Of a stretch of 64,000 bases of DNA, positions 6,074-62,374 are shown piece by piece (positions within the stretch are counted from its first letter, which is position 1; each line of letters begins with the position of its first letter). Location: the IMG/VR virus record IMGVR_UViG_3300009502_000026, positions 1-64,000 of that record. One strand, given 5' to 3'. The translations under genes were made by a program, and so were the position numbers. The notes below the pieces were generated by a model that ran no database searches, had not been told where the DNA came from, and was given only the letters and a program-made list of their open reading frames with translations. This DNA is from a virus.

Positions 6074-6982
6074 CTATCGGGCGTTGTGAGTTAAAGACTC
6101 TGCATTCTTCCTGGTGACATGAAGCATCTCTTCCAAATCTTCAAGCTGCCTGTCATGCTCTTCACGGTCCTTATCAAAGTCCTTCCCGGCTCCTTCAAGG
6201 ACTTTCCCATCCTTCTTATGTTCATCAAGGATATCGTAGAGCTTTTCCTCAAAAGCCCTCAACTTGGGCACATCCTTGATGGTCTTCTTGTTTGTAGCAT
6301 AGATTTCGTCATCATATTCCTTCTTGGTGTCCTTGAAGCGTTTGGATGCCTTATCTTGAGTACTCTTGATTTCTTTGAGCTTCGCTGGAGACACCTTATG
6401 TGTGGTCTTCTTCTTGTGGCTAGTTATAGCCTGCTCAACTTCTCCAATTTTACTCTTCAGTGTTCCCTGAAGGTCAGTGTTCCTCTCAGCGTACCTACCC
6501 TTGGTGCCTTCCTTCTTGTCCTTCTCCACTTGAGCGTTCGTAGCAGAGAGAAGGTCTTCCAAGGTCTTCTTCACTTCTTGAAGTTCAGATACCACATGAT
6601 GGGGGTTCTGACTTGTCCCCACTGAGAAAGTGACTCTGTTATAGTAGGAATTGGGGTCAACTTTGACCTTGCTATTCTTATCACCTTTGAGTTGCTTCAG
6701 TTTGCTATCCAAATCACCACCGGACTCTCCAGTTTCTTTGGATTTCTCTTCAGCCTTATCCGGTGCCCTCTCTTCCTTCTCCGGTGCCTTCTGAGACTCA
6801 GAACCACCCGAAGGAGCCTTCACCGTATGCTTGACATGACTCTTGGGGTGATCCTTCAAGTACTTGTCCAGAGCTTCCTGTGAAGGGAACTCCATAGCTG
6901 TCTTCAGGATAGGAAGCAGATGGGGCCGAAGCTCAAGGTTGGAATGAGCTAACTTGATGAGCTTAGTCCGAAGTGTGTCTAC
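6074..6982 (-). CDS. Leader-tagged, highly charged (K/E-rich) putative virion internal protein (probable GTA start)
   Basis: In-frame extension upstream of the ATG at 6895 encodes (V)DTLRTKLIKLAHSNLELRPHLLPILKTA, followed by the MEFPSQEALDKYLKDHP module and coiled coils. Confidence 0.7.
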   Translation of the reverse strand, partial: VDTLRTKLIKLAHSNLELRPHLLPILKTAMEFPSQEALDKYLKDHPKSHVKHTVKAPSGGSESQKAPEKEERAPDKAEEKSKETGESGGDLDSKLKQLKGDKNSKVKVDPNSYYNRVTFSVGTSQNPHHVVSELQEVKKTLEDLLSATNAQVEKDKKEGTKGRYAERNTDLQGTLKSKIGEVEQAITSHKKKTTHKVSPAKLKEIKSTQDKASKRFKDTKKEYDDEIYATNKKTIKDVPKLRAFEEKLYDILDEHKKDGKVLEGAGKDFDKDREEHDRQLEDLEEMLHVTRKNAESLTHNAR

Positions 6983-7027
6983 CCTAGGTCCTCACCCTTG
7001 AAACGTAATAGGATTTCTACTTGACGG

Positions 7028-8149
7028 TCACTTGATGACTTCGTAGTTCTTGAGGGGATGCTGGAAGTACATGTCCCTGTAGGGCCGAAGTCCCAGAGAT
7101 TCGGCTACCATAGTAGTAGTCCCTGTGAAACCCTCAATGGAAACCGTCAAGGGAACGAAAGCCCCCCATTCAGTCTCTACAGTCACCGAGATAGATGAGT
7201 TATAGAAGTAGTCATCACCATTCTCATCGTAGACTTCTTCGGACTCGCCACCCATGGAAACATCTGTAATCTCAACACCTTGGGAAGATAAAGTAGGCCG
7301 AAGGATGCCCCAGAGATACACGGCTGTCTGATCCGCTATCTCCATCTGGGCATTAGTGTCACGGGTCATCACTGTAATGTCTAGGGTCTGTTCCCACTTG
7401 CCCCCGTACTGGAGGTAAGCATCCTGACGGTAGGGGGTGACAATCACAGCGAACCTATCACCTACCGCTACCCGGTGCCCAAAGGCAAGTACACACCCTG
7501 GAATGGGCTTGTTGACCCCTGTATTGTACTCCAGGGGCCAAGGACCCGAAGACTCCCCAGGATACCTGTAGTCTGCGGTCAAAGACAATCCCCGTGGAAG
7601 GGGCTCCCTCAACGTGAAGACTGACCCGTCTTCGTTGAGGGTGTAGTCCACACCTTCAACCAGTTTCCGAGAACTGGGGAGTTCATAGAGCCGCAGGCTC
7701 CTACGAAGGGGTGTATGGAGGAGTGTCCCCTCTACAGGGGAAGTCATCATCACCTGTTCGGCCTGAACAGTATACAGGGGGTCAACGTGGAACTCTTTCT
7801 CACCTGTAATCTCACAGTAGTAGGCACCTGGGAGAGATGGGAACACCCCCCTATTGTCCTGGATGGCTATGGCATCTTCCCGTACCCACTCACAAGATAG
7901 ACCTGTGTAGTTAGGAACGTAAGCCAAGAAGCAATAGCTCTTGAGAGTTCCCATGAAGTTGTCGGCAGACAACTGTAACTTGTTTGCTTGACCACCCTTG
8001 ACAATGATCCCGTACTGGGGTCTCTCTTTGAAAGAATATTTACCCTGGATATTGTCGGGTAGGTCTGGATAGGCTGGGTGATTCGCCCAGAACTCACGGA
8101 GTTCCAGGATGAACCTACGTTTTGTGGCCTGGGTTAAGTGAAGGAACAA
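7028..8149 (-). CDS. Putative tail completion/terminator-like virion protein
   Basis: 373 aa in the morphogenesis block; C-terminal LDITVMTRD...EIADQ...YNSSISVTVETEW resembles tail terminator topology; SD GGGAG. Confidence 0.45.
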   Translation of the reverse strand: MFLHLTQATKRRFILELREFWANHPAYPDLPDNIQGKYSFKERPQYGIIVKGGQANKLQLSADNFMGTLKSYCFLAYVPNYTGLSCEWVREDAIAIQDNRGVFPSLPGAYYCEITGEKEFHVDPLYTVQAEQVMMTSPVEGTLLHTPLRRSLRLYELPSSRKLVEGVDYTLNEDGSVFTLREPLPRGLSLTADYRYPGESSGPWPLEYNTGVNKPIPGCVLAFGHRVAVGDRFAVIVTPYRQDAYLQYGGKWEQTLDITVMTRDTNAQMEIADQTAVYLWGILRPTLSSQGVEITDVSMGGESEEVYDENGDDYFYNSSISVTVETEWGAFVPLTVSIEGFTGTTTMVAESLGLRPYRDMYFQHPLKNYEVIK

Positions 8150-8190
8150 GTGATCTCCCTACACTACCGGGTTACAGGAGAATCAACGGA

Positions 8191-8511
8191 CTACTTGGAC
8201 ATCTTCTTCAATTCGGTCTTGACCCGCTTGGCAACTTCACCCTTCCAAGAACTCGCATTATTGAGGAAGTAGGCTACAATCCCCTTACCAGAATCAGCAC
8301 CGTAGTTATCTGTAATCTTGTCCAAACCAGACATAGCTTCCAAGTAGGGCTTGGCTGCGAAGTTGACATTCTTCCAGTCCCGACGAATCTCGTCTGCAAT
8401 CTCATGGAGCGGACGTGTGCTATCTGCCGTGAGAATAGGGAGTAGATGTGGGCGTAGCTCAGGATTTGCGTGAGCTAGACGAATGATCTTGGAACGGAGA
8501 GGATCGGTCAT
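8191..8511 (-). CDS. Leader-tagged small helical phage protein (106 aa)
   Basis: Likely start MTDPLRSKIIRLAHANPELRPHLLPILTA with SD AGGAG; body RPLHEIADEIRRDWKNV..AKPYL..YFLNNASSWKG resembles a phage hypothetical family. Confidence 0.8.
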   Translation of the reverse strand: MTDPLRSKIIRLAHANPELRPHLLPILTADSTRPLHEIADEIRRDWKNVNFAAKPYLEAMSGLDKITDNYGADSGKGIVAYFLNNASSWKGEVAKRVKTELKKMSK

Positions 8512-8548
8512 GGATAGAACTCCTACAAGGAGTTCTACCATAGGGAAG

Positions 8549-8980
8549 CTACTTAGGAGTCTTGAGCTTGATGATTCCTTGATGAAGAGCATCCTTGTCC
8601 AGATTGGATTCAGGACGGGGCATGTGAGGTAGACCCCCACGAAGAGCATCAATGTCAATCTTAGGGGATGACTCCCACAAGGTAGACAACTCTTCAACTT
8701 CCCTCTTGGCAAGGACACCCTTGAGCTTGCGGTAAGGCCACAGAGCCGTGTGGATCTTCTGCTTCAGTCTCAAGTAGGGAAGGTAAGCAGGACTGAGACT
8801 AAACTTGCGGTGTAGTTTTGGGGTTTGGAGTCGGAGCTTCAGGAAAAGTAGTGCCTCTACTGACACCATCTTTGAGATGGGGCCCTTCAGTTGCGTCTGA
8901 TAGAAATCCTCTAGGGTCTTGTGGATTCTCTCCACCTTTACCTGAAAAGAATAGATGATCTTGGGGGTCTTGAAAATCAT
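8549..8980 (-). CDS. Hypothetical basic protein
   Basis: 143 aa; ATGA overlap with the stop of the actin-like gene. Confidence 0.55.
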   Translation of the reverse strand: MIFKTPKIIYSFQVKVERIHKTLEDFYQTQLKGPISKMVSVEALLFLKLRLQTPKLHRKFSLSPAYLPYLRLKQKIHTALWPYRKLKGVLAKREVEELSTLWESSPKIDIDALRGGLPHMPRPESNLDKDALHQGIIKLKTPK

Positions 8981-9987: not shown

Positions 9988-10519
9988 TCCCTCGTTTCTT
10001 CTTGGTAGCCCTCAAGGTATTACTCGCTTCATCCACAGAACCACCCACCAAATGTTCCGTAGGGGCAGTTACTTCGGCCTTAACTTCACCAATAGTGGGG
10101 ATGAAGACCTCTTCAGGCTGTCCTGTGAATACCTGTCTGTCCCTAGCACTTACCCCAACACCCTTGAGTTCATGTACTTCCTTACGGAGTTCCTGAACCG
10201 TATGTGTCAAGGTATCTATCCTCCCTATCAATACCTGAAGTAATTCAGAGGAGACAGTTGTGGGTGGGACAATGACCTTCGGGATAGGTTGTACCAAGGG
10301 TGCCTGGAAAGGCACCCTTATTTCACCCGCTGGCCGAACCTCTCTGGGTTCATCCTCCGCTCTCACTCTTACCTTCCCAGTGGTCTTTGCCAGTCTAAGG
10401 TCCACAGACCGTTCTGCCAGACCGGCTTCAACCCAAATGCTATTACCCCCTGGAACCTTCCCATACCCAAGATCATTGAGGGAAGTGTCTACCAAGGCTG
10501 TGATTGCTACCCTACTCAT
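9974..10519 (-). CDS. Hypothetical protein
   Basis: 181 aa; overlaps both neighbours in an operon; short coiled coil. Confidence 0.6.
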   Translation of the reverse strand: MSRVAITALVDTSLNDLGYGKVPGGNSIWVEAGLAERSVDLRLAKTTGKVRVRAEDEPREVRPAGEIRVPFQAPLVQPIPKVIVPPTTVSSELLQVLIGRIDTLTHTVQELRKEVHELKGVGVSARDRQVFTGQPEEVFIPTIGEVKAEVTAPTEHLVGGSVDEASNTLRATKKKRGIGNG

Positions 10520-11064: not shown

Positions 11065-11169
11065 GGTTCAGCCTAATCGAAAGAATGAGTCAAATCCCAG
11101 CCTTGCCCTCTATGCCCATGGGAACCAAACCTGACTCTTGCTCTTGTAAGCTCCAAATCATGCTCCGAA

Positions 11170-12546: not shown

Positions 12547-12589
12547 GAGAGATTCCTCCTAGTGGAGGTTTCTCATAGTCGAATCAACA

Positions 12590-13585: not shown

Positions 13586-13631
13586 TCCTAAGACCTTTGT
13601 GGAAGGTTGTAACCCCCACCACTTAGTTTCT

Positions 13632-13771: not shown

Positions 13772-13788
13772 AGAGCCTTTGAGGGTCT

Positions 13789-17869: not shown

Positions 17870-18673
17870 TTACAGATTCACGTCTTCCATGTCCCTCACG
17901 AAGTCTGCCCAGTCAGCCTTCCAACCACTTGGACGACCACCCTGACGACCCAGATAGAGAACCGTGCCCTTGGTAGGATTGAAGGTTGTTGGGTGCCCTA
18001 CTCTCTGAACGGCATACATCCCAAAGACAAGATTACCTTCCTTGGTCATTCTCATCTGGGGGACAAGTCCGCTGAAATAGACACTGTAACGGCTCTCCCC
18101 CTGGGCGGAACCAGCCTCAACATAGTCATCTATGATTTCCATGTGAGTCTTAGTCGGAAGCTTGCCATTCTTGTCCTTCAGATACACACACTCCATGTGT
18201 ACCTTGCCCTCAGTGCCCTTCTCCACACCGGAGCCAATCGGGGTGAACCTACCAAGGCCAGTTTCCTTACCGGGCTGGACACCATAGAAGAAAATCTTCT
18301 TATGGTCCTGGTCCATTTCAATAGTGTAACCCTTGTGGTCCTTGTCTACCACACGCCCCGTCTGACGGTGATACTCACGGCAGGTTTCCTCATTCTGTTC
18401 ATTAGTGTTGACATTCACGTCAACACTAACAAGTTCACCTACGGACAAGGGGCCCCGACGAGCTTCTACTGAACCCAACAGAGGTACACCCTGCTTTTCC
18501 AAAATCTCCTGAACCTCATCCGGGGTGTACTTCTTAGCCCTGAGCATCACCCATGCTACGAAGTCCTCAGAGGTAGGGGAGAAAGCCGTCTTCCCTAGAA
18601 CCGGAAGAAGCTCATTCCGAAACTCAGGGTGTTCGTGGGCTAGCTTGATGACCTTGGACCGGAGAGTTTCCAT
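17870..18673 (-). CDS. Leader-tagged hypothetical protein
   Basis: Starts METLRSKVIKLAHEHPEFRNELLPVLGKTA. Confidence 0.8.
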   Translation of the reverse strand: METLRSKVIKLAHEHPEFRNELLPVLGKTAFSPTSEDFVAWVMLRAKKYTPDEVQEILEKQGVPLLGSVEARRGPLSVGELVSVDVNVNTNEQNEETCREYHRQTGRVVDKDHKGYTIEMDQDHKKIFFYGVQPGKETGLGRFTPIGSGVEKGTEGKVHMECVYLKDKNGKLPTKTHMEIIDDYVEAGSAQGESRYSVYFSGLVPQMRMTKEGNLVFGMYAVQRVGHPTTFNPTKGTVLYLGRQGGRPSGWKADWADFVRDMEDVNL

Positions 18674-18717: not shown

Positions 18718-19161
18718 CTACTCTTCATCTTCCAGGATAGCACCAAGCATCTTCACGAAGTCAGCCGGGGGCAGACCCTTCATGCGTTCCTTGGTCTCAG
18801 GCTTGGCATTCTGAAGGAACTTCCGCATGAGTTCTGCATCCGAGAGCTTCACACCACTCTTCGGCTTGTCCTTCTTGAACTTCTTGACCTCATCTGCATC
18901 ATCATCCTTGAGCTTGTGCTCATCCATCACGGACTTCACATTCTCATGGTACTTGCCAGCGTAGGTCTTGTTCTTCCAGGAGCTACCCTCGGGGAGAGCA
19001 CCCTCACTACCAATGTCCTCACACTTCCGGGTTCCATCATCCCAGTTAGTGCCATCTTCACACCGCTCATGGGGTGTGGATGCCAGGATGGGGAGGATGT
19101 GGGGACGAAGCTCAAGGTTGGAATGAGCTAGACGGATCAGTTTGCCACGTAGGGTTGTCAC
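18718..19161 (-). CDS. Leader-tagged charged hypothetical protein
   Basis: Starts MTTLRGKLIRLAHSNLELRPHILPILA; SD GAGGAG. Confidence 0.8.
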   Translation of the reverse strand: MTTLRGKLIRLAHSNLELRPHILPILASTPHERCEDGTNWDDGTRKCEDIGSEGALPEGSSWKNKTYAGKYHENVKSVMDEHKLKDDDADEVKKFKKDKPKSGVKLSDAELMRKFLQNAKPETKERMKGLPPADFVKMLGAILEDEE

Positions 19162-19173: not shown

Positions 19174-19980
19174 CTACTTCTTAATATCCTGGGATTCATT
19201 CCTAGACTTCTTCTCATGCCAGTCAGACCACTTTTTATGCCTAGCTGCTTTTTCCTTGTGAGTCTTAGCCTCTTCGTGCTTACCCGCCTTGGTAGCAGCT
19301 TCGGCAGCTTCTTCATGAGCTTCAGTAGCTCGCCTGTGGCTACTACCCGCTATATAGTGGTCATCCCCAGTATTCTGATGCGTCTCTTCATAGTGCTTGG
19401 CAGCTTTTGAATTCTCTTCAGCACCTTCAGTTCTATCTTCAGCATAGTTCTTGGCATGGGAATAGGCATCATCTAATGCCTTCTGCTTGTGATGCTTGGC
19501 CTTTTCCTCATGGTGCTGGGCCTTCTCAGTATTTCCACGTTCCTTATGATGCTTGGCTGCATCTTCATGTTTCTTTGCAACATCATTATGGAGCTTCTCC
19601 CCCTCCCAATGTTGGTGTCCAGTGTCATCCAGTTTCTCGGAAGCCTTGTCTGCGGTAGAAGAGATGGCATCATCTTCCTGCTTCTTCTTCTTCTCAATGC
19701 CTTCATGGTGTTCCTTGGCCTTATCCTCCTTCCCCTTTTCATGCTTCTCTAGGTCACCATTCTTCTTGTCGAACATCTCTCGGATGTGCTTCTGCTCATC
19801 CTTGGGGAGAGAATCGAAATCGACCTTGTTATGTGTCTCAGGATTGGTGAACTTCTTGGTTTCGATATAGGCATCAAAACCCCCACCCATAGCCGTCTTC
19901 AGGATAGGAAGAAGATGTGGACGAAGATCGAGATTGGAATGGGCCAGACGAATCAACTTGCCACGAAGAGTGTCAGTCAT
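19174..19980 (-). CDS. Leader-tagged His/Lys/Glu-rich protein
   Basis: Starts MTDTLRGKLIRLAHSNLDLRPHLLPILKTA; NPET motif; HHE/KAK-rich helical repeats. Confidence 0.8.
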   Translation of the reverse strand: MTDTLRGKLIRLAHSNLDLRPHLLPILKTAMGGGFDAYIETKKFTNPETHNKVDFDSLPKDEQKHIREMFDKKNGDLEKHEKGKEDKAKEHHEGIEKKKKQEDDAISSTADKASEKLDDTGHQHWEGEKLHNDVAKKHEDAAKHHKERGNTEKAQHHEEKAKHHKQKALDDAYSHAKNYAEDRTEGAEENSKAAKHYEETHQNTGDDHYIAGSSHRRATEAHEEAAEAATKAGKHEEAKTHKEKAARHKKWSDWHEKKSRNESQDIKK

Positions 19981-24800: not shown

Positions 24801-25844
24801 ATGTCCTCCTTCTTCAGGTACAAACCACCATACACCAGGACTACATTCAACCCCAGGGCACCGACCCCTACAGGTATCTACCTGTTTGAAACCCCAGCCA
24901 TGATCTGGGTAAAGGGGCCTAGGGAACTCCTGGATAAAGCAGGGCCATTCCTGAAGAAACTAGGACTCGCCAGAAGCCATACGGGTGAGGGTGAATGGTT
25001 CACTGACCCTGATATGAACCCTGACTACTTTGCCCCCAAACTCAGAGAGTTTGTCAAGCAATTCAATACAGAGAATACACAAGACAAGACAGCTACATCC
25101 ATAGCAGCCCGCTTTATGGCCGCTTACAATCCCTACAGGACCCACACTCATCTCCCAGGCTCCCACCGGGACAAGGAATGGGATGAGAATGTCATAGCCC
25201 CTAGACGTGTTCCCCAAGGCAAAATCTCATATAGTACTGAAGATGATGGTTACGGGCACTTCACTGTCTATGTGCAAGGCCCTCTAACCTCGATGGAATA
25301 CCTCATCCCAGACTTGAAGAAGATGGGATTTACTGAGAAGCACAAAGACTCCAAAGACACCATTTGGGAAAGACCTGATGAAGGTAGAAACTTGAAGTTC
25401 TGGGGTGACAATGAGGAAATGGCTCTCCATTTCCTCATTGAAGACCTAGAGAAAGAACTCAAGGTGCCCGAGGCACCGGAGCCACCACAACATCGAGAAC
25501 CCCCAAAGGATGAGATCACTCAGAGATTTGAACAGAACCTCTGCATCTCCATTCCCTTCAGCCTCAAGGATGAGGCCAAACATCTGGGTGGACGCTGGGA
25601 TCAAGCCCGCAAGCTCTGGTGTATGCCCGACAAACGTTCCCTGGAGAAACTCCAGGAGATCCAAGCTGGCTTGTGTGTCAAGATCCCCTATGAGTACAAG
25701 GATGAAGCCAAGAAGCTAGGAGGCTCCTGGAACCCCACTGAACGCAAGTGGTGTCTACCCAGCCCCGAAGCCGTCGAGAAGCTTCTAGCAATCATCCATG
25801 CAGGGTCATCTCAAAAGGTAGCCAGTCTGTACCTGTCTCGCTAG
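24801..25844 (+). CDS. Protein with two tandem DUF5710-like repeats
   Basis: IPFSLKDEAKHLGGRWD..RKLWC and IPYEYKDEAKKLGGSWN..RKWC; SD AAGGAG; late-motif variant at 24773-24787. Confidence 0.7.
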   Translation: MSSFFRYKPPYTRTTFNPRAPTPTGIYLFETPAMIWVKGPRELLDKAGPFLKKLGLARSHTGEGEWFTDPDMNPDYFAPKLREFVKQFNTENTQDKTATSIAARFMAAYNPYRTHTHLPGSHRDKEWDENVIAPRRVPQGKISYSTEDDGYGHFTVYVQGPLTSMEYLIPDLKKMGFTEKHKDSKDTIWERPDEGRNLKFWGDNEEMALHFLIEDLEKELKVPEAPEPPQHREPPKDEITQRFEQNLCISIPFSLKDEAKHLGGRWDQARKLWCMPDKRSLEKLQEIQAGLCVKIPYEYKDEAKKLGGSWNPTERKWCLPSPEAVEKLLAIIHAGSSQKVASLYLSR

Positions 25845-26537: not shown

Positions 26538-27572
26538 TCAGAACTGAGCCATCCACTTCTTGACTTCATCTGATAACTCACTCGGCTTCACAACCCTGGT
26601 AGTCAACAGTTCTGCAAACCATTCCCTAGGGTTCTTACGGGCATATTCCGTAGGCATCCAATCACTCAGCTTGTTCTGGTACAGATTCTCTCGACGCTGG
26701 TATGCCTCTGAAGGGGTATTCTCCCGCTTCACCACAAGGTCATTCATCTCTTTCACCTTGATTTCAATCTCAAGGTTTACAGCCGTAATCCTCTCCTTGA
26801 GTCCTGGAGTAGCTTCCAGTAACTCAGAAGTAGGGTGGTGCCTGATGTATGGAGGCTTCCACCCCTGAGAGACAATGGTAGCCATGTCATTGGGAGATGG
26901 ATTCAAGAGTTCAACCTCTGTGAGCTTCCCACCCTTCCCAGGTACAGGCTTGATGACCCTGTACTTCCTGGTCACCTTCTCATTGTGAGTGAAAGGATTG
27001 TCCCAACTTGTGATTTCTACGATAGCACCCTTGGCTACCATTCTCAGGAGTTTGCCCTTGTCAAGTTCAAGCTTGGCTATCTCTTCCCTGAGAATATCAT
27101 AGGGGTCCACAGCTTGAGCTTTAGTAGGGGCTTCCTCCTTGGCCCAGATGAACTTCTCAATGATCTTCCCGTTGTTGAATTTGCCCGGCACGTTGTTGTA
27201 GTGATACCAGTGAGCTAGCTCATGGATGAACGTGAAATAGTTATCACCGGATTTCAAAGCATTGGGGAGAATCTGAACGTGGTTTGTATTGGGGTCAAAG
27301 AATGACCGTTGAGCGGCACCCTTCCCCTTGACTACTATGTCCACCTTCCCCCTGAGAGGGAACCCAGCACTGGAGAAGTCCCTACTGGCTTTCTCCAGAC
27401 CCTCTCGGATCATGCCCAAGTAATCTATGTAATGATGATAAATGTGAATAACGAAACCCCCTGTCTCGATGACAGTGATGAGTTCCACAGCTTCCTTCAA
27501 GATTGGAAGGAGATGGGGTCTAAGCTCCGGTTGAGTGTGGGCTAGATGGATGAGACTAGATCGAAGAGTCAT
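26538..27572 (-). CDS. Leader-tagged zincin metallopeptidase
   Basis: MTLRSSLIHLAHTQPELRPHLLPILKEA; FIHELAHWY; distal TEYARKNPREWFAE separated by an insertion of about 190 aa. Confidence 0.75.
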   Translation of the reverse strand: MTLRSSLIHLAHTQPELRPHLLPILKEAVELITVIETGGFVIHIYHHYIDYLGMIREGLEKASRDFSSAGFPLRGKVDIVVKGKGAAQRSFFDPNTNHVQILPNALKSGDNYFTFIHELAHWYHYNNVPGKFNNGKIIEKFIWAKEEAPTKAQAVDPYDILREEIAKLELDKGKLLRMVAKGAIVEITSWDNPFTHNEKVTRKYRVIKPVPGKGGKLTEVELLNPSPNDMATIVSQGWKPPYIRHHPTSELLEATPGLKERITAVNLEIEIKVKEMNDLVVKRENTPSEAYQRRENLYQNKLSDWMPTEYARKNPREWFAELLTTRVVKPSELSDEVKKWMAQF

Positions 27573-28451: not shown

Positions 28452-30374
<1,923 letters not shown>

Positions 30375-30449: not shown

Positions 30450-30875
30450 TTGACCCTCCGCTCCAAACTGATCCGATTGGCTCACTCTAACACTGAACTT
30501 CGTCCACATCTGCTCCCACTCCTGAAGACAGCCACGGACTTCCCTACACAGGAAGCTCTTGACAAATACCTCAAGGAACACCCGGACGCTGACAAGTCCA
30601 AGCACAAAGTTGTATCCAAGTCATCTGTGGATGCTGACAATGCCAGTGCAAAGGCAGACAAAGCATCACAGACTGCAAATACTACTTGGGGCACCTATAA
30701 GGAGAAGAACCATTCGGATGCTAGGGACCTCCACTGGGAAGCCAAGAACCAGCACAACAAGGCCAAAGAAGAGGCCAAGAAGAATGGTGACACTGACAAG
30801 GCCAAGTACCATGAGGACAAGGCCAAGTACCATGAGAAAAAGGAACTGGGGCACGATAAGGACGCTTATCGTTGA
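30450..30875 (+). CDS. Leader-tagged charged protein
   Basis: TTG start; MTLRSKLIRLAHSNTELRPHLLPLLKTA then DFPTQEALDKYLKEHP module; DKAKYHE duplication. Confidence 0.8.
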   Translation: MTLRSKLIRLAHSNTELRPHLLPLLKTATDFPTQEALDKYLKEHPDADKSKHKVVSKSSVDADNASAKADKASQTANTTWGTYKEKNHSDARDLHWEAKNQHNKAKEEAKKNGDTDKAKYHEDKAKYHEKKELGHDKDAYR

Positions 30876-30921: not shown

Positions 30922-31707
30922 ATGACCCTGACCTCAAAACTGATCCGTCTCGCCAGTCAGAACCCTGCTCTCAAGCCCCACATCGCAGCCATCCTGAAGG
31001 AAGCCTCAATGTCTGAGCCTGACTTCTGGAAGCTCATCGAACCTTATGGCTGGGGGACCAAGACCACAGATTACAAAGCCATCAAGAAGAGCCTGATGGG
31101 GAAACTGTCTCCTGATGAGGCAGAGGGACTCCAGACTACAATGATGAAGCTGGAAGGCAAGCTTTACAAGGCTCTGAAAAACCTGAACATTGTGTCAGGT
31201 GACACCATGGGTGACCTCATTGCCCACATCATAGGGATGGGCAAGAAGGAATTCGAAGCGGTAATCAAGGACCCCCAACTAGCCTACCAGCGTTACCAGA
31301 GCGGTCAGTACACGGAGTCCTTCAGCTACGCTCTCCCACACAAGAGTGACTACAAGAATCTCAACGTCACCAAATTCACTGACTGGGCACAGGAGGTTAT
31401 TGGTAACTACACAATGATCCTCAATGCCTCTGAAGATGACATCCCCTGGAAGTCCAAGCTTGCGGCTCCCTTGAAGAAGGTCATCTCAATCATGGAGAAG
31501 TTCGTTGAGACAAAGGATGTAGCCACCTTCTTGGACAACGAAGCAGAAGCCAAGAAAGAGTCTGAAGAAGTGGGCAAGATTCTCAGTAGGTTGCAGCTTG
31601 GCTGGAGTATACCTAAAGAGGGTTCCCTGGAGAGTGCCGTTCATTTCAGCGGCAATAAGTGGGGTGTCTGGAACCTGTTCACTGATGTGCGGGACTACCT
31701 GAGCTAG
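30922..31707 (+). CDS. Leader-tagged DUF4240-like protein
   Basis: Likely start MTLTSKLIRLASQNPALKPHIAAILKEA; body SMSEPDFWKLIE...SGD..DL.AHIIGMGK.FE..DP..ESFSY resembles DUF4240. Confidence 0.7.
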   Translation: MTLTSKLIRLASQNPALKPHIAAILKEASMSEPDFWKLIEPYGWGTKTTDYKAIKKSLMGKLSPDEAEGLQTTMMKLEGKLYKALKNLNIVSGDTMGDLIAHIIGMGKKEFEAVIKDPQLAYQRYQSGQYTESFSYALPHKSDYKNLNVTKFTDWAQEVIGNYTMILNASEDDIPWKSKLAAPLKKVISIMEKFVETKDVATFLDNEAEAKKESEEVGKILSRLQLGWSIPKEGSLESAVHFSGNKWGVWNLFTDVRDYLS

Positions 31708-51160: not shown

Positions 51161-51166
51161 GGGCTT

Positions 51167-55378: not shown

Positions 55379-55386
55379 CTCACCTA

Positions 55387-55671: not shown

Positions 55672-55731
55672 AAGGCTCTCCGGTAGCTTTACTGTACCGA
55701 AGCAATCCTAGTGTTCTCGGCTGGAATGAAA

Positions 55732-57474
55732 CTAGACGTAGATACCAGTCAGATTCTCTGCCATGTTCTTACCCGAAAGGGTGATCTGGAGTCCTACCCC
55801 AGTCAGCTTGACCAGACCCTCACCTAGAAGCTTCACAATGATAGGGTTCTTGGGGTCATACTTCCCAAGCCCCTCACGTCCAAAAGCCTCTCCTCGGGAA
55901 CCCGCCTTGTAGGACTTGATGATCTTCAGTGCCTTCTTCTCATCCTCCGAGAGCTCAACCTGTGTCTCAGACGGGAGAAGCTTCTGAAGGTTGTCAGGAT
56001 TTACATAAACAGAGGCATAGGGTGTTCCCCCAATGAAACCCTTCACAACAGCACCATTCATCGGAATGGGGTAGTTCTTGTCATCCAAGTCTACCTGATT
56101 CTTGGGGTTGAACATGTTTGCCCCTCCCCAGGAACCCCATTCAAGCTTGTAGCGTCCCGTCCCTAGGTCAACTACAGCCGTGAAACCTCTACGGCCCTCA
56201 CCACCGGGATCTACTGGAGAGTAGGTATTTGAAGGGATCACTCTGATGTCCCTACGCCCGTAATCCACTTCTTTCAGAACATTCCTGATACCTTGGGGCA
56301 AGTCCTTTGTCAACATGTACTGACCCGAAGCTTCCTTGATAAGAGGAAGAAGGTCCCCACGGAACTCAGGATGGGAGTGGGCGAGCTTGATGATCTGGGA
56401 CCGGAGGCTAGCTCTCTTCTGCCCCTGGAAAGGAACATCCATATCAGACATAGCAGCATTGTAAGCTCTCCATACCTGATACATCTTCCGCATGGGGAAA
56501 CGGTACTGATCAGCTTCCTCATCGGTCTTGGCACTCATCTGCTTTTTGACAAGATCACTCTTAATATCATCAACAGCATGGAATTCCTTCTGAACCTTGT
56601 CCTTCTCCCCACTCTTCATCCTCTTCACAAGGTCTTTCTGAAGAGCTTTTACTGCCGGATGGCGATATGCCTTGTCCTTGTCCAAGTCTGCATCTGGCAT
56701 CTTTTCCATAGCATCCTGAAGATGCTTGGGCATTGCCTTGACCTCTGGGGGAACCTTCAACCCAGGAGGGGCCTTTTGAGGATAGTAACCGTTCTTCCTC
56801 TCATTCTTGTAAGTATCAGACTTGTGGTGCTCATCGTGATTGAAAGCTACTGAATGATTTTCTGGCTTGGCCTTGGGATGAGCCTTGAGGTACTCATCCA
56901 TAGCTTCCTGGGTCTTGAACTCCATAGCTGTCTTCAAGATAGGGAGAAGGTCTCCTCGGAACTCAGGGTGAGCATGGGCGAGCTTGATGACCTTAGACCG
57001 GAGAGATTGTGTGTTCACGTCTGCATTCCTCTGCTTGAGAAGGTAGATGTTCGTCTCATGTGCATTGGCTAGTGCCATGATGAAGTCATCCAAACCGAGA
57101 GTCATCTCCCCAGAACCCTTGATGGCTTCATAGAGTTCCTTCAGAATCACCTGAAGTTTCTCTTCCAACATCAAGGCCCTGAAAGGGATGTCACCTGACT
57201 TCCCATAGTATTTCCTGAGTGCCCGCATTGTGAGGGCTTCAATCCCAAGGGGCTCCACGGCTCCTGGACCAAAGTATGAGACGATCTTCTCAGCTAGACC
57301 ATCAACCTCATCTGACACACTCACATAGAGACGGTTGAAAAGATCATGGTCAGAGTAAGAGATAGCCCCATTGGTCTGCCAATGTGAGGTCCAGTGGGAC
57401 CAATGCAAAGCCTTCAGAAAGGCTAGGGCCTGTACCAGGAGACTCTTGGTGCTGTCGGAGGAAGGGGTTCCCAT
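55732..57474 (-). CDS. Putative polyprotein: ferritin/Dps-like domain plus two internal leader-tagged domains
   Basis: HWSHWTSHWQT..YSDH.LF.RLY..EVDGLAE..DDF..HE..YLL (Dps-like); internal leader copies at 56926-57003 and 56329-56406. Confidence 0.75.
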   Translation of the reverse strand: MGTPSSDSTKSLLVQALAFLKALHWSHWTSHWQTNGAISYSDHDLFNRLYVSVSDEVDGLAEKIVSYFGPGAVEPLGIEALTMRALRKYYGKSGDIPFRALMLEEKLQVILKELYEAIKGSGEMTLGLDDFIMALANAHETNIYLLKQRNADVNTQSLRSKVIKLAHAHPEFRGDLLPILKTAMEFKTQEAMDEYLKAHPKAKPENHSVAFNHDEHHKSDTYKNERKNGYYPQKAPPGLKVPPEVKAMPKHLQDAMEKMPDADLDKDKAYRHPAVKALQKDLVKRMKSGEKDKVQKEFHAVDDIKSDLVKKQMSAKTDEEADQYRFPMRKMYQVWRAYNAAMSDMDVPFQGQKRASLRSQIIKLAHSHPEFRGDLLPLIKEASGQYMLTKDLPQGIRNVLKEVDYGRRDIRVIPSNTYSPVDPGGEGRRGFTAVVDLGTGRYKLEWGSWGGANMFNPKNQVDLDDKNYPIPMNGAVVKGFIGGTPYASVYVNPDNLQKLLPSETQVELSEDEKKALKIIKSYKAGSRGEAFGREGLGKYDPKNPIIVKLLGEGLVKLTGVGLQITLSGKNMAENLTGIYV

Positions 57475-57507
57475 ACTGCCACCTATTGATAGAGGAATGA
57501 GTGAGGT

Positions 57508-59682
57508 CTAACTGTCAGCACTTATGCTTAGAGCCAACCTTCGGAGGAGAGAAGCTAGGATATGCTTCTCATTCAATCTGGCAAAGAGACGGTCCATGAT
57601 CGGCATGATTTTCTCTTCGAAGGTCTTCTCCTCAATGTACATATCATTATCGTAGGTCATCCAGTTCAACCATGGATTGCTGATCCCAGACTTGCAGAGG
57701 CGATGGTAAACATACTGTTCACAGACCCGTGCCCATACCTCAACGGAAGAAAAGGCATAGCTCAACTTCCGACTATCCCCACCATTCATCTTGGTGTAGT
57801 ACTTATCCGCTGCCTCCACTAGCACTGGAGAAAGTTCTGTCTTGTACTTTGCTTCTGTAACAGTTTTGTAGTAGTATGGATGATCTTTGGGAAGATCATA
57901 CATGCTCTGTCCTGTAAGTTCCTTGATGGCACCTTCCAGAGAGAAATCGTAAACCCCTGGAACCCTATTCTTCCATCGGGTGTAGTCTGGGGTAACCAGA
58001 ATAGTTTCTATCAGTTCAGGTATCTCAGGGAAATTGCCTGCTATACGGCCAAAATAGGCATTGGGGGTTTTGAACCATGTTGCAGCATAGTCCAGGGTCA
58101 CTCCAGTCCTACCAAAGATATTCCCGTCTGGGGATCTCCTAGCTTCCTCGGGGTTATCCTGAAGGTTTATCCGGTAGGCTAGAAGCTCATCCAAGTAGTG
58201 ACTGAGTTCATGTGCCAGGACACCCTCATAGTCCTCCCCAAATGTCACCCTTGGTTGCCATACGTTTCGATCCTCCCAAGCAAAGTAGCTAGCCTTTGCC
58301 ATGAAACCACTAGATCCCCCGAACCTGAAAGCTAGACCCTTCTTGTGCTTACCGCAGAAACCCTTCCCAAACACCCTCTCCAGGTCTGAGATAGCTCTGG
58401 ACACCCTGCCAAGGGTCTCTCTTTTCGATTCTTCAGTGTAGCTCCCCAGGAACTCCACATCACCTGTGTCATGTGTAGTCTGGAATTCCTCTACAGACAT
58501 TGGCTTCCAAGTCAGAGGTTCCAAAGGGATACCATCTCTGATAGCCTTGTTCTTCCCCAACTCATCCATGGACTCCTTGATGTTGTCAAGGAAATACCCG
58601 TTAGGGAGAATCTTCCTGTCTACAGCTTCCTGGATGACCCTCTGGAACGAGGGGAGAGTTTTCACCTGATTGAGAACCGTGAGTACCTTCCGCTGCTCAC
58701 GAGGGATGTTCTTCTTGCCCTCACTGACCATCTTGACATAGTACTTCCGTAGATTGCTGAGTACAAAGTCAGTGGGACCGTCAACTTCCACCTTGGCTTC
58801 TCTCTTCAGGATATCCTCAATAGGTTCCTGTACCTGTCCACCCTTGATGATATTGACATGAACTCCAGCCCTACGTTGGGCCTTCAGGAGTATAGCTTGT
58901 GACTTCAGCCAGTAGTCACGCTTTTGCTCCAAAGGGATTGTATCATCGTTTGCAGCATCCTTCCAAGCCTTGTCACTACGGATAACCTCACCACGAATCT
59001 CGGTTTTCTCCTCTTCGGGCATATCAAACCATGCCCCAGGATTCTCTTCCTCATGGGGGGTGAGTCCCAGACTCCTACCATCCCCTTTACCGAGAAGGAT
59101 TATCTTGCGGAGAAGTACCTTGACCCCCGTAGGGACTGCCTCCAGCCGAAGAACACTCTTGAAGAAACCAGGGTAGTCAATGTCATACTGAAGGCTTGGG
59201 TCACGCTCCTCATCATTGATGTCCATGCTGATTGCTTGTCGAACCACACGGAGCACCAATGGAGATACTTCTTGCCAATGCAATCCTCGGAGCCCCCGAA
59301 GGATCTTGGTTACATAGACAAGTGCCTGACGGTCCTGAGTAGGTAGGAGCTTGGCTACCCCACGTAGGGGAGTAGCAATGATCTTGACCCCTGGACCGTA
59401 CTCCCCAGCTTCACATTCATCTGCGAACTGAAGGCAAGCTACAACGAATTCCTTGTGGAAGAATCTCCGAACGGAAAGAAACTTCCGAACTTCACCCTCA
59501 GTGTAGAACGGGTTATTCAGGATGGCAGACTGAGCAATCTGGAGTGCAATACCTGCCGTGACTACTTCCAAGGCAGGAGTAGGCTGCTCTTTCTCAGTAG
59601 ATGCAAGCACAGGTAGAAGATGCACCCGTAGAGATGGGGTTTGCTGGGCAAGATGGATGAGACTTGACCGGAGGTTCATCAT
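57508..59682 (-). CDS. Leader-tagged protein with HExxH metallopeptidase and LPD1-like C-terminus
   Basis: MMNLRSSLIHLAQQTPSLRVHLLPVLA; LAHELSHYLD; SY..S.VEVWAR.CEQYV. Confidence 0.7.
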   Translation of the reverse strand: MMNLRSSLIHLAQQTPSLRVHLLPVLASTEKEQPTPALEVVTAGIALQIAQSAILNNPFYTEGEVRKFLSVRRFFHKEFVVACLQFADECEAGEYGPGVKIIATPLRGVAKLLPTQDRQALVYVTKILRGLRGLHWQEVSPLVLRVVRQAISMDINDEERDPSLQYDIDYPGFFKSVLRLEAVPTGVKVLLRKIILLGKGDGRSLGLTPHEEENPGAWFDMPEEEKTEIRGEVIRSDKAWKDAANDDTIPLEQKRDYWLKSQAILLKAQRRAGVHVNIIKGGQVQEPIEDILKREAKVEVDGPTDFVLSNLRKYYVKMVSEGKKNIPREQRKVLTVLNQVKTLPSFQRVIQEAVDRKILPNGYFLDNIKESMDELGKNKAIRDGIPLEPLTWKPMSVEEFQTTHDTGDVEFLGSYTEESKRETLGRVSRAISDLERVFGKGFCGKHKKGLAFRFGGSSGFMAKASYFAWEDRNVWQPRVTFGEDYEGVLAHELSHYLDELLAYRINLQDNPEEARRSPDGNIFGRTGVTLDYAATWFKTPNAYFGRIAGNFPEIPELIETILVTPDYTRWKNRVPGVYDFSLEGAIKELTGQSMYDLPKDHPYYYKTVTEAKYKTELSPVLVEAADKYYTKMNGGDSRKLSYAFSSVEVWARVCEQYVYHRLCKSGISNPWLNWMTYDNDMYIEEKTFEEKIMPIMDRLFARLNEKHILASLLRRLALSISADS

Positions 59683-59703
59683 CCTCCGGTGAACATAGGA
59701 AAG

Positions 59704-60492
59704 CTACTCAGTGGTCAGAGAAAACCCCACAGGAATATCAGTGATATCAGTGATAGCCCCACCATGCCAAACAAAGTGGAAAGGTCCGGCTCCATAGGTA
59801 TCTTCCCCAAGACACTTCTCGGTGATAGCCTTGGCATCACCCAAACCCATCCCAGAGACAGTTCGAACGAATTTGATGTAAGTGATCTTGTTGTGATGAA
59901 CACTACCATCAAGGGTCTGTGCAGGATTCAAGTGACACAAGAGTCCAGTATCACCACGCTTCCTCTTGGGAAGCGGTGCTGAAATCACAAGATCAGGGGC
60001 TACAGGTGAGAATGACTGTGCTAGAACAGGGGTGCCCACATTAAGGGTACCCGGTACACCCTCTGGTCCCGTCATTCCTTGAGAACCCTTGGGCCCTGGA
60101 GGTCCCGCCACACCTTGAGGACCCTTGGGTCCAGGAGGTCCAGGGGGTCCCTTGAAGTTCTTGGTATTGATCAGGATAGCCAGATTGTCGAGCTTGGTTT
60201 CCAGTGCCCTCTGTTGGGTCTGGACAGCCTCCACCACCCCAACCATCCGGTCCACGGTACGAAGGATCAGCAAGGTCTCATCATGCCGAGAACTCAATGC
60301 CTCGGTAACCAAAGCCTCCAGAGTCTCCAACTGAGCCTGAAGAGTTACCCAGTGAGGGTCTTCCTTGAGTGTGACATTCGTTTCAGATGTTACACTAGGA
60401 TTAGCAGCATTATCCTCAATATCCAGAAGTCTGAGAGCCACATCACCGGGTAGGTTAGAGTGTAGGATGGCAGGGATATCCTTTGGGTCCAC
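59704..60492 (-). CDS. Coiled-coil, short collagen and ribosomal L7/L12 CTD-like protein
   Basis: Heptads; about 12 GXY triplets; NKITYIKFVRTVSGMGLGDAKAITE resembles the bL12 CTD. Confidence 0.65.
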   Translation of the reverse strand: MDPKDIPAILHSNLPGDVALRLLDIEDNAANPSVTSETNVTLKEDPHWVTLQAQLETLEALVTEALSSRHDETLLILRTVDRMVGVVEAVQTQQRALETKLDNLAILINTKNFKGPPGPPGPKGPQGVAGPPGPKGSQGMTGPEGVPGTLNVGTPVLAQSFSPVAPDLVISAPLPKRKRGDTGLLCHLNPAQTLDGSVHHNKITYIKFVRTVSGMGLGDAKAITEKCLGEDTYGAGPFHFVWHGGAITDITDIPVGFSLTTE

Positions 60493-60496
60493 ACCT

Positions 60497-60525
60497 TACT
60501 TACGGCATGGACCTGGAATCTTAAC
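60497..60525 (-). promoter_or_regulatory. Putative early/middle promoter GTTAAGATT-N13-GTAAGTA
   Basis: Third copy of the motif; ends 4 nt before the GTG start at 60492. Confidence 0.7.
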
Positions 60526-60554
60526 CCAAAATCGTAGGGACTACAGGTAGGTGT

Positions 60555-60737
60555 TTAGTCTACACTAGCATCCACCACGTCAATGCTCGGGAGCACATCC
60601 ACCGGAACCGGGGGGGCATCCTGGGCATCCGTGGCATCCACCTGGGCATCCGTGGCATCCACGGTAGCATCGGTAGTGTCAGGAGTTTCGGAACAGCCGA
60701 GGGAGAGGACAACTAGGGTGAAGAGAAAGTACTTCAT
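60555..60737 (-). CDS. Small acidic lipoprotein
   Basis: MKY + hydrophobic core + lipobox LSLG-C; VDATDAQ repeats. Confidence 0.7.
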   Translation of the reverse strand: MKYFLFTLVVLSLGCSETPDTTDATVDATDAQVDATDAQDAPPVPVDVLPSIDVVDASVD

Positions 60738-60850
60738 GCCCCAAGGTGTAGAACAGGCAGACTATTGGTGCAACCCGAATCTGAGAGGGAGATACCGATT
60801 TCTCAGTGACCGTACATAGGATGTCTACTTTTGAAGACTCCACCCCTTCA

Positions 60851-61495
60851 CTAATGTCCCTGACCCCAAGGGGTCACATATAGAGGTTTACCATCCCACT
60901 TATGGACACTTACAACAGAATTGATCCTAGCACCCCCGGGTCCTGGGGCTTTTCGGATGACAGGTCCAACATACTTCCCCGGAACAGGCATCACATGATC
61001 ATCACTGACAGACTTTTGAGCAATCTCACGAAGTTCTACCATCTTTGGAGAGGGCAAACCTACAACCTCATAAGTATCAGTCTGTGTTTGATCATAGCCC
61101 CAGGAACCAACCAGGATGTCCCCCACTTGAAGGCCATGCTGGAAGTTCTTTCTGGCATCTACCTGCTCTTGCTTGTAAGCTAGAGTCTTCTTTCGGTCAT
61201 CAATCGTATCCTGGATGTACTTGTCTCTGGGTGTCTCACCCATGAAGCTGTTGTACCACAAAGGCTTCTGAGACTTACCCATGAAGGCAACCGCACCGGG
61301 CTTACCCCTGGGAGTGATATAGGTATAGATTTCCAGATCCGTTCCCTGTGTATCCACAGAGACAGCATCCTTTGGGACATAGATACTATGGGGCACAGGC
61401 ACCCTTCGCATAGCCTTCTTCAGGAGAGGAAGAATCCTGTGACGAAGCTCAGGCTTCTCATGGGCTAGCTTGACGAGTCGGGTACAGAGGGTCAT
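60851..61495 (-). CDS. Leader-tagged protein with SWGYDQT domain
   Basis: MTLCTRLVKLAHEKPELRHRILPLLKKA; VGDILVGSWGYDQT..YEVV motif recalled from phage/plasmid hypotheticals. Confidence 0.75.
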   Translation of the reverse strand: MTLCTRLVKLAHEKPELRHRILPLLKKAMRRVPVPHSIYVPKDAVSVDTQGTDLEIYTYITPRGKPGAVAFMGKSQKPLWYNSFMGETPRDKYIQDTIDDRKKTLAYKQEQVDARKNFQHGLQVGDILVGSWGYDQTQTDTYEVVGLPSPKMVELREIAQKSVSDDHVMPVPGKYVGPVIRKAPGPGGARINSVVSVHKWDGKPLYVTPWGQGH

Positions 61496-61531
61496 TGGAA
61501 TTCCTTCATGGAATATGAGGCTAGAGACTAT

Positions 61532-61993
61532 CTACCGTGAAAGGGTCTCAACCAGAGCAGTCCACAGTGGATACCTGTGTTTCACATCCCCATCAGTATG
61601 ATAACTGGCAAAACTATCGGCAAAAGCTTCTTCCATGTTGTGTTGACCAAATGGAAGTGTGGATGTCTCCCAAGGATTGATACCCAACGCTTCGGCTGAC
61701 TCTATCAGATTCGAAAGACCAGCCTCGGATTCTACATGGTGCCCAAACTCATGGGTGAGAACAAAATCCTGGACAACTGAGGGCAACTCCCAGAACTTTG
61801 GGTAAAGCTCGATTCCCTTAGATGTGTACCTAGCTTCGGGATGACTGCCAGCCCCAGGATGGTCAATCTTTGTAATCCTCACCCTTGAATACTTACGAAG
61901 GGCAGAATGACGGGTGAAATACTTCTTCAGCCATGTCTCAAGATTGACTTCACGAAGAGCCCACAGAAATCTGGTTGCTACTCTGGTGTGCAT
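61532..61993 (-). CDS. Small HExxH metallopeptidase
   Basis: LTHEFGHH, NMEEAFADSF; N-terminal RVATRFL motif. Confidence 0.7.
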   Translation of the reverse strand: MHTRVATRFLWALREVNLETWLKKYFTRHSALRKYSRVRITKIDHPGAGSHPEARYTSKGIELYPKFWELPSVVQDFVLTHEFGHHVESEAGLSNLIESAEALGINPWETSTLPFGQHNMEEAFADSFASYHTDGDVKHRYPLWTALVETLSR

Positions 61994-62374
61994 TTATCTT
62001 GCCCTTGTGTAAGAGCCTAACATGATCTTACTGACTTCTTTCAAGTCCAATCCAGGATTCAGACTTCCCAGCCGTACCCAGATTCTCCCATAGGCACCCT
62101 GAAGCCATCTCTTGAGGTCTTCATCGGAAACACCTAACCGCTTTGCAGTAGCTCCCGCAGATACCGCTAGAATCTCGGCTCTCTCGGCTGCAATGGCTGT
62201 CTTGTCACCACCCTTTGCCCGTGCCATCTCATCAGCTTGACCAAACATCCTAATAACCATGGCATCCAGCTTCTCTACCAAAAGATTACCTGCCTCTTTC
62301 AACATAGGGAGTAGGTGGGGTCGGAGAGAAGGCTCATTGTGGGCAAGTCGAATAATCTTGGAACGGAGAGTCAT
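61994..62374 (-). CDS. Leader-tagged small helical protein
   Basis: MTLRSKIIRLAHNEPSLRPHLLPMLKEA; SD GAGG. Confidence 0.8.
   Translation of the reverse strand: MTLRSKIIRLAHNEPSLRPHLLPMLKEAGNLLVEKLDAMVIRMFGQADEMARAKGGDKTAIAAERAEILAVSAGATAKRLGVSDEDLKRWLQGAYGRIWVRLGSLNPGLDLKEVSKIMLGSYTRAR

Follow-up and report, generated by a model that had tools for sequence, protein, structure and literature searches.

A short peptide tag recurs on unrelated proteins of an uncultured freshwater phage clade and is a candidate address for loading cargo into the head

We analysed the first 64 kb of a 94,090-bp IMG/VR contig (IMGVR_UViG_3300009502_000026, positions 1 to 64,000; hereafter the window). The contig has a CheckV completeness of 22%. 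The phage genome is roughly 0.45 Mb, and the source is lake and freshwater metagenomes of at least two studies. Lake samples containing the phage cover it at about 20-30x. Twelve genes of the window, T1 to T12, encode otherwise diverse proteins that share a tag of 26-28 residues. The tag consensus is x-[ST]-L-R-S-K-L-I-R-L-A-H-x-N-P-E-L-R-P-H-L-L-P-[IL]-L-K-x-A, with arginine or lysine conserved at columns 4, 9, 18 and 26. The tagged genes are listed below. A slash within a motif marks a candidate cut site, and module E is another recurring segment, of ~20 residues (EFPxQEA.D.YLK.HP).

T1, 6074..6985, minus strand: tag at 6896-6979 (63 bits), then module E, then a Lys/Glu/His-rich protein
T2, 8191..8511, minus strand: tag at 8422-8505, then the 75-aa globular domain of phrog_13953
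T3, 17870..18673, minus strand: tag at 18587-18670 (58 bits), then a 236-aa unknown domain with no Pfam family above threshold
T4, 18718..19161, minus strand: GTG start, tag at 19075-19158; small charged protein ending in an AKPETKERMKG module
T5, 19174..19980, minus strand: tag at 19891-19974, then a His/Lys/Glu-rich protein (11% His)
T6, 26538..27572, minus strand: tag at 27489-27572, then a zincin-like protein with HExxH (HELAH)
T7, 30450..30875, plus strand: TTG start, tag at 30450-30533, module E, then a Lys/His-rich protein
T8, 30922..31707, plus strand: diverged tag at 30922-31005, then a DUF4240-like domain
T9, 55732..57474, minus strand: Dps/ferritin-like domain, tag at 56926-57009, module E with a charged domain, KRA/S, tag at 56329-56412, C-terminal domain
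T10, 57508..59682, minus strand: tag at 59596-59679, then a 694-aa protein with HExxH (HELSH) and a weak C-terminal LPD1 match
T11, 60851..61495, minus strand: tag at 61412-61495, then an 'SWGYDQT' domain (phrog_37844, LPD-like)
T12, 61994..62374, minus strand: tag at 62291-62374 (64 bits), then a 97-aa domain

We built a hidden Markov model (HMM) profile of the tag from 12 copies, leaving out the copy at 30922, and searched the window. All 13 copies counted in the first-pass annotation were recovered. Eleven are at the N-termini of open reading frames (ORFs), namely those ending at 6074, 8191, 17870, 18718, 19174, 26538, 30875(+), 31707(+), 57508, 60851 and 61994. The other two lie inside 55732-57474; this T9 frame is polyprotein-like, with tags of 62 and 56 bits and a weak DUF5856 match. 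Domain E-values of 12 window copies run from 1e-14 to 1e-18. The copy absent from profile building was the weakest (27 bits, E 2e-7), and the best score among other window frames was E 0.6. Outside the window, the contig has two additional copies: an N-terminal one at 87737 and an internal one in 89487-90653. Apart from the weakest copy, E-values over all 15 are 1e-14 to 1e-19. Across the 15 copies, amino acids are on average 58% identical and nucleotides 60%. Pairs of copies with the same residue also have the same codon in 43% of cases, compared with 32% predicted by codon usage alone. Since the peptide is kept although synonymous sites are close to saturation, selection is on the peptide and not on the DNA, as had been proposed. 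Judged by sequence, the tag copies are old.

In searches of the 12 tagged proteins and of 107 relatives, neither Pfam nor PHROGs gave a model that spans the tag as a unit. One phrog_13953 alignment reaches back to T2 residue 12; BLASTP homology starts at about residue 22-27. The tag motif strings do not occur in the published papers searched, and the huge-phage literature that was searched describes no such tag. Nor does the tag resemble a Sec or Tat signal peptide. Such signals are confined to the N-terminus, have a hydrophobic core of at least 10 residues or a twin-Arg motif, and are cleaved after A-x-A; the longest hydrophobic run of the tag is LLPLL, and copies are also internal or C-terminal.

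In AlphaFold2 (AF2) models of T2 and of the database protein P0049, the tag is predicted to form two helices separated by a proline kink (predicted local distance difference test, pLDDT, 72-90). This agrees with the two-helix element suggested earlier. For T2, helices span residues 4-15 and 17-28 with block-mean pLDDT of 77-90 and a dip to 69 over residues 21-30; the cargo exceeds 95. P0049 has the layout tag-module C-tag, where module C belongs to a scaffold-like protein described below. Its helices span residues 3-16 and 18-29 (block-mean pLDDT 72-83) and the remainder is disordered. The predicted template modelling score (pTM) of this protein is 0.23, and on this score no tag-tag packing was confident.

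The proteins behind the tag are diverse. All-against-all BLASTP of 17 cargo segments gave matches only for T1/T7 and T5/T7, the former being module E and the latter His/Lys-rich sequence. Module E is directly behind the tag in three copies (6979, 30450 and 57009; T1, T7 and the first internal tag of T9). Similarity had been described as stopping abruptly at the terminal alanine. This stands insofar as cargoes are essentially unrelated, but not for the three copies sharing module E. A methionine right behind the tag, pointed out for several cargoes, is not a general trait: it is present in only 18 of 445 tags of the wider family, where it is mostly part of module E. Window cargoes include two HExxH proteins and DUF4240-like, Dps-like, phrog_13953 and phrog_37844 proteins. 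The DUF4240 match of T8 (E 0.002) falls below the Pfam cut-off; a tagged DUF4240 protein exists among the database matches (P0237). For T6, a single distinct homolog was found in 5.8 billion proteins.

Cargo domains also exist without the tag. In the T2 cargo family, 116 of 120 relatives lack it, and these are mostly stand-alone proteins of 75-95 aa. The untagged relatives that were read begin at the tag/cargo boundary or no more than ~10 residues from it. For instance, the first residue of Mycobacteriophage Iwokeuplikedis gp93 (80 aa, 60% identical) aligns to T2 residue 27. Phages of Gordonia and Mycobacterium commonly encode this family (49-60% identity). In actinophages it sits among unannotated small genes at the far genome end, away from virion genes. 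A fold search of the T2 model against the PDB gave no match. The T11 domain is untagged in Vibrio phages and in one 39.6-kb siphophage; in the Atlas, the cluster it resembles bears the name 'large polyvalent protein associated domain' (score 0.95). The Dps-like part of T9 stands alone beside a tagged gene in one relative (L056). These comparisons support the earlier proposal that the tag was put in front of pre-existing domains, and that it is portable.

Where cargo domains were recognised, they were effector-like, as the first-pass annotation had supposed. Pfam searches of 107 tagged ORFs from relatives identified DUF2958 (three members), ART-PolyVal (two) and one each of pentapeptide repeats, DUF5710, 2H-SAK, DUF7007, DUF3846, WGR and RelA_SpoT. 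Tagged database matches yielded RelA_SpoT (two), DUF2958, DUF4240 and two others. Zincin and LPD-like domains are also part of this vocabulary. No replication, transcription or metabolic enzyme was seen among tagged proteins, only ~15 of the 107 having any Pfam match. Most tagged proteins have one cargo domain; only T9 and some database matches are polyprotein-like. An untagged 153-aa HExxH gene (61532-61993), with a weak match to ATLF (anthrax-lethal-factor-type zincin), starts one base past the T12 stop, and this suggests that T12 and the zincin are a coupled pair. Two further untagged genes sit amid virion genes of the window, at 28452-30371 and 24801-25844. The former encodes an NAD-dependent DNA ligase of LigA type, complete and including BRCT, and the latter a DUF5710/SUKH-like protein.

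The first-pass annotation had proposed scanning the rest of the genome and related phages with a profile. This located the tag in LR745208.1, in IMG/VR loci and in 3,214 protein clusters. The latter are matches of a 30-column profile to 1.84 billion cluster representatives at E <= 1e-3; 326 of them have E <= 1e-10. All matches with a recorded source come from metagenome collections, on contigs up to 530 kb, and they have no functional names. A tblastn search of 50,697 phage records with a tagged protein had a sole match, LR745208.1, an uncultured phage of 485 kb with 11 copies. One narrow pattern, from a 6-sequence alignment, was compared with 185,579 GTDB species genomes. It gave two matches, both on small contigs of metagenome-assembled genomes (MAGs), which is weak evidence that the tag is missing from cellular genomes. 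One of the two (L009) is on an Actinomycetota MAG contig; this contig and the T2 cargo family are weak hints of an actinobacterial host in lakes. IMG/VR yielded 64 tag loci, and 20 of these contigs hold 1-15 copies each. The capsid gene is present in 12 of the 20 tag-bearing contigs at 87-94% identity. Identities for other head genes in relatives are 59-70% (portal), ~43% (protease) and ~50% (scaffold-like protein). Such capsid conservation, where portal, protease and scaffold genes are at 43-70%, is a strikingly strong constraint for a phage of ~0.45 Mb. As far as these matches reach, the tag is confined to one clade of freshwater phages of roughly 0.45-0.5 Mb.

Most tags are N-terminal. Of the 124 tag-bearing ORFs in the IMG/VR loci, 112 carry a copy at the N-terminus; in the remaining 12, every copy is internal or C-terminal. 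The initial description of an N-terminal leader fits the 112, but not the internal and C-terminal tags, which often number 2-6 per protein. The best 241 database matches, which are biased to multi-copy proteins, most often have N-terminal plus internal tags (81), an N-terminal tag only (65) or N- plus C-terminal tags (36). Single-copy proteins in this set have the tag at the N-terminus (65) or internally (7), and never at the C-terminus. C-terminal copies stop right behind L-L-P-L-L-[K]. Many multi-tag proteins are Lys/Glu-rich, with other short recurring modules and charged linkers predicted to be disordered. One mosaic family (P0025-P0049 and others in the database) carries short recurring modules between charged linkers: GCEKLPEGxMRDNC, ADPTxNMSxED..W, FPPDSIG...EFTQQE, AKPETKERMKG and KFxNPxTxxxVxFxSLP. 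Two of the modules are present in window genes T4 (18718-19161) and T5 (19174-19980), and AKPETKERMKG is in 14 multi-tag database proteins.

Tagged ORFs mostly start with ATG, 1-4 residues ahead of L-R; the exceptions T4 and T7 use GTG and TTG. For T1, a start had been assigned at 6982. There is no ATG, GTG or TTG there or elsewhere ahead of the tag in this sequence, and the codon at 6985-6983 is AGG. In contigs of three other sequencing runs (X1-X3, from two studies), a C>A change at position 6984 makes this codon ATG, and therefore T1 normally begins M-V-D-T-L-R. A fourth run matches the window, with AGG at the T1 start. Window positions 6983-6985 (and 6999) are thus a strain polymorphism at the T1 start codon, with an intact tag behind it. 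In this strain, the first usable ATG of T1 is the methionine directly behind the tag, at 6895, and an untagged form of T1 may be made.

A late-type motif was said to precede most tagged genes. In its strict form, TAG-N5-YTAT, it does so for 6 of the 14 tagged genes of the contig. It is found as CTAT 37 nt upstream of T1, 26 nt upstream of T7, 24 nt upstream of T10 and 34 nt upstream of T12, and as TTAT 38 nt upstream of T5. The same motif is ahead of untagged scaffold-like and Tad5 genes in the head operon. In relatives, it precedes 12 of 96 tagged ORFs compared with 11 of 560 controls.

The window ends within the gene for the major capsid protein:

63947-64825 (window 63947..64000 is the 3' end), minus strand: major capsid protein, 292 aa, phrog_2522 'major head protein' (E 1.7e-48)

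PHROGs found this gene; the Pfam Gp23 and Phage_capsid models did not. For a 447-aa candidate, the Atlas gave no capsid match either. The minus-strand order on the contig is TerL, portal, a Tad5-domain protein, a 1345-aa polyprotein (71236-75273), a scaffold-like protein (70541-71185), a 181-aa protein, an intein-bearing protease, an acidic EF-hand scaffold (65795-67114), a 237-aa protein, the capsid protein and a methyltransferase-like gene. Downstream of the latter are a plus-strand ORF (62418-62978) and then tagged T12, T11, T10 and T9. These four tagged genes are a few genes downstream of the major capsid gene. Four relatives have unrelated tagged genes inside the head operon. The arrangements are portal-[tag]-polyprotein in L037 and L068, protease-scaffold-[tag]-237aa-capsid protein in L022 and the 485-kb phage, and 793aa-Dps-[tag]-TerL in L056. 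A homolog of an untagged gene from the virion-gene block occurs at 33 of 66 tag loci. The scaffold-like protein (70541-71185) contains a 'module C' that, in relatives, immediately follows the tag in fusion proteins, often as tag-module C-tag. By profile search, the two scaffold-like proteins of this contig have no tag.

The head genes have other features of note. The product of 65795-67114 is a 439-aa acidic scaffold-like protein whose EF-hand match (E 3e-5) is just under the Pfam cut-off. The longest ORF in that region, on the plus strand (65735-67132, 465 aa, Leu/Gly/Arg-rich), was discarded as a shadow of this gene. The protease gene (67199-69958) carries an intein with a LAGLIDADG domain (Pfam). 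Portal and TerL (76246-79266 and 79875-83168) align to relatives in two blocks around a long insert, consistent with these inserts also being inteins. Beside the portal gene, contig 75275-76204 encodes an untagged 309-aa protein with a C-terminal Tad5 (type I Thoeris inhibitor) domain (E 1e-31). This is an anti-defence gene within the head operon and, as for tagged genes, TAG-N5-CTAT is ahead of it. Repeats in the 793-aa head protein (VRDRISKLAHEGLL) look tag-like by eye and were set aside, having no tag-profile score. A second portable N-terminal module, of ~55 aa (..VT.NLD.LA..FQ.HH.SLGI..KVA.DF..RCDLL.D..), ends in K-x-A/G or K-x-A/S and occurs in contig 70541-71185. In LR745208.1, at ~401.9-404.1 kb (L074, L075), it heads the scaffold-like protein and a paralog with a different C-terminal domain.

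The tag junction recalls sites that are common in head proteins. In 15 head-module proteins, [KR]-x-A-[SAGT] was observed 53 times compared with 20 expected from shuffles (z 7-8). The other 82 proteins have 59 compared with 51 expected (z 1.2). When all 20 residues were tried at P1, only alanine was enriched in head-module proteins. Sites include the capsid N-terminus (YLKTA/T and KLA/A), the portal N-terminus, 12 in the 793-aa protein and many in both scaffold-like proteins. Site positions are kept in the LR745208.1 ortholog. Of 445 tags, 46% have [KR]-x-A precisely at columns 26-28 and 74% have it within 7 residues; the background is 2.1% per position. The residue behind is mostly A, G or S. 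Ahead of internal and C-terminal tags there is a K-x-A-S signal, with K in 36-50%, A in 35-45% and S in 39-45%. Six proteins (gene starts at contig 51559, 65795, 67199, 69963, 79618 and 86351) have R-T-A near the N-terminus; in four cases it is among the first 7 residues. Five are in the head module and one (51559) is just outside. The N-termini are MTTPRTA, MAFLRTA, MQDRTA, MNRTA, ..MSRTA and ..TDRTA; here, R-T-A may be a very short propeptide ending in the same Ala site.

Known phage systems provide partial parallels. In T4, a capsid targeting sequence on IPI-III and Alt directs proteins into the prohead scaffolding core, the prohead protease removes the peptide and the cargo is then injected (PMC3012670, PMC5694885). 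The tag is alike in being a short peptide common to diverse proteins, and tagged cargo includes ADP-ribosyltransferases, as Alt. The two have no sequence similarity; the 50,697 phage records searched by tblastn, which are expected to include T4-like phages, returned only LR745208.1. The T4 propeptides are 10-20 aa long (PMC5694885). The tag, in contrast, has 26-28 aa and two predicted helices, can be internal, C-terminal or multi-copy, and has the candidate cut motif [KR]-x-A/small. The T4 prohead protease cuts after Glu.

Cargo fused to the scaffold of phage P22 gets loaded into particles, and this scaffold leaves intact, without proteolysis. A preprint describes the C-terminal helix-turn-helix of the P22 scaffolding protein as essential for coat-protein binding (bioRxiv 10.1101/2022.12.13.520362). 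Like the tag as predicted by AF2, this element is a short helix-turn-helix of ~30 aa with basic residues. In relatives, the tag is at the ends of Lys/Glu-rich scaffold-like proteins, flanking module C. However, P22 has one such domain on one scaffold protein, whereas the tag is on thousands of unrelated proteins and mostly N-terminal. Encapsulin loading peptides are short and terminal, serve diverse cargo, typically ferritin-like, and dock on the inner face of an HK97-fold shell. Encapsulins are cellular compartments, and their loading peptides are not removed by a protease. One tagged protein here, T9, has a Dps/ferritin-like domain followed by a tag. By reading, motif and length of the encapsulin peptides differ from the tag, and the shell of this phage is encoded by a capsid gene that lies in a portal/terminase operon.

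Polyvalent proteins are effectors encoded among virion genes and predicted to be packaged and delivered with the DNA, with 2-15 domains per polypeptide (Iyer et al. 2017, PMC5512222). ART, 2H, RelA/SpoT, metallopeptidase and LPD are among their domain types, and T4 Alt is an established injected ART (PMC5512222). Tagged cargo shares this vocabulary (ART-PolyVal, 2H, RelA/SpoT, zincin metallopeptidase and LPD) and is also encoded amid virion genes. The difference is that polyvalent domains are fused, whereas here they are mostly separate genes, each under the same tag, rather than multi-domain polypeptides. The classical polyprotein of the head operon (71236-75273) has no tag. In giant phages of the phiKZ/SPN3US type, the prohead protease removes propeptides of many inner-head proteins at a short motif, and these are thought to target proteins into the prohead (PMC5694885). 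Such propeptides are longer than the tag, at 80 to >100 aa, do not share a single conserved and portable sequence, and have their cut site behind (A/S/G)-x-E. In its putative action, the tag may be likened to the T4 targeting sequence, the P22 helix-turn-helix and encapsulin peptides; by sequence, it is a member of none.

The tag is very probably a shared docking or address module of some kind. For its destination, we give an even chance to the interpretation that a position-tolerant docking peptide loads late-made effector-type and scaffold-like proteins into the prohead, where the prohead protease releases the cargo. We favour head loading on circumstantial grounds: tagged genes lie within or beside head operons, head-module proteins are enriched in the junction motif, and the cargo is of effector type. 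The tag, predicted as helix, proline kink and helix, is attached to accessory, effector-type proteins and to Lys/Glu-rich scaffold-like ones. Tagged proteins would be made late, alongside head proteins. The tag would then bind one common receptor within the assembling prohead, either the scaffold core or the inner face of the capsid protein. A receptor on the capsid inner face would fit the extreme capsid conservation. Next, the prohead protease would cut [KR]-x-A/[S/A/G/T] on the cargo side, plus just ahead of internal and C-terminal copies, freeing the cargo. The cargo would be kept in the head and enter the host with the DNA. Prohead binding, cleavage, retention and injection are all steps that we infer.

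Several observations weigh against head loading. The K-x-A expected behind the tag is within 7 residues in most cases, but 26% of tags have no [KR]-x-A in that range. The motif is not significantly depleted in cargo domains (38 observed compared with 43.5 expected, z -0.9). The candidate prohead protease had no PDB sequence match, and no Pfam match outside the intein; it has no family assignment and therefore known specificities cannot be applied to it. Internal tags, C-terminal tags and 2-6 copies per protein poorly suit a simple cleaved leader. In a 92%-complete relative, 11 tags are spread over at least six regions. Across 12 contigs, ~14 tags were observed within 10 kb of the capsid gene compared with 13 expected, and hence there is no clustering beyond chance. 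The phage is uncultured, and none of the sequencing runs listed for it is on record as RNA.

Other explanations were weighed against the same evidence. It is possible, though doubtful, that the tag is a docking 'sticker' for some phage-built structure other than the capsid interior, for example a condensate, a compartment for replication or assembly, a complex at the membrane, or a hub or chaperone protein. Multi-tag Lys/Glu-rich proteins would then be the scaffold and single-tag enzymes the clients. The many proteins with 2-6 tags between charged, predicted-disordered linkers suit this well, as do the tolerance of the tag for position and the scatter of tags over the genome of the near-complete relative; moreover, none of the tests run singles out the capsid as destination. 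Against it are the tagged genes within head operons and a junction motif enriched specifically in head-module proteins. The few recognised cargo domains are effector types, with none for replication or transcription, and AF2 gave no confident tag-tag packing (pTM 0.23, which is weak evidence). A combinatorial peptide code within the head is unlikely. Here, the two-helix tag and other short modules (GCEKLPEGxMRDNC, FPPDSIG...EFTQQE and EFPxQEALxxYLKxHP are proposed) would be multivalent stickers that build an internal head protein body from Lys/Glu-rich linkers and dozens of client enzymes. An Ala-specific prohead protease would excise stickers on both sides, at K-x-A/S before and at K-x-A followed by G, A or S after, turning the network into free injectable cargo.

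We consider it quite improbable that the tag acts in the host after delivery or expression, where it would localise many effectors to a host target, or bind them to it; the nucleoid, the membrane or a conserved protein are examples. In favour of this are the amphipathic, basic character of the peptide (R4, K6, R9, R18, K26) and its effector-like cargoes. Such a role leaves unexplained why scaffold-like head-module proteins have tags, why a protease-like junction motif is on both tag sides and why tagged genes are placed in head operons. Against a Sec-type signal are the short hydrophobic stretch and, again, the internal and C-terminal copies. Very improbable is a regulatory element of the proteins themselves, such as a degron or a site recognised by a chaperone or protease to time or limit activity, with no targeting role. 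The tag does favour termini, and one strain has lost the T1 start codon before an intact tag, with the next in-frame ATG encoding the methionine right behind it. However, 26 residues conserved over >3,000 protein clusters, at 2-6 copies per protein, are unlike known degrons, and the scaffold-like module fusions and head-operon context would be left unexplained. An element at the level of DNA or RNA (a recombination site, a regulatory sequence or an assembly artefact) is refuted. Only the repetition itself speaks for it, and it is excluded because the peptide is conserved despite near-saturation of synonymous sites. In addition, copies are always in frame within long ORFs, and contigs of three differing runs from two studies hold the same tagged genes.

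If head loading is true, the tag would provide a sequence-readable list of the proteins injected by an uncultivated clade of half-megabase phages, with 5-15 tag copies per contig and thousands of clusters. Many unknown domains would be flagged as candidate early-acting or counter-defence effectors. The maturation protease would have a new specificity, [KR]-x-A/small, which recalls the Ala/Ser sites cut by herpesvirus assemblin. The tag itself would be a natural modular cargo-loading handle for a very large capsid.

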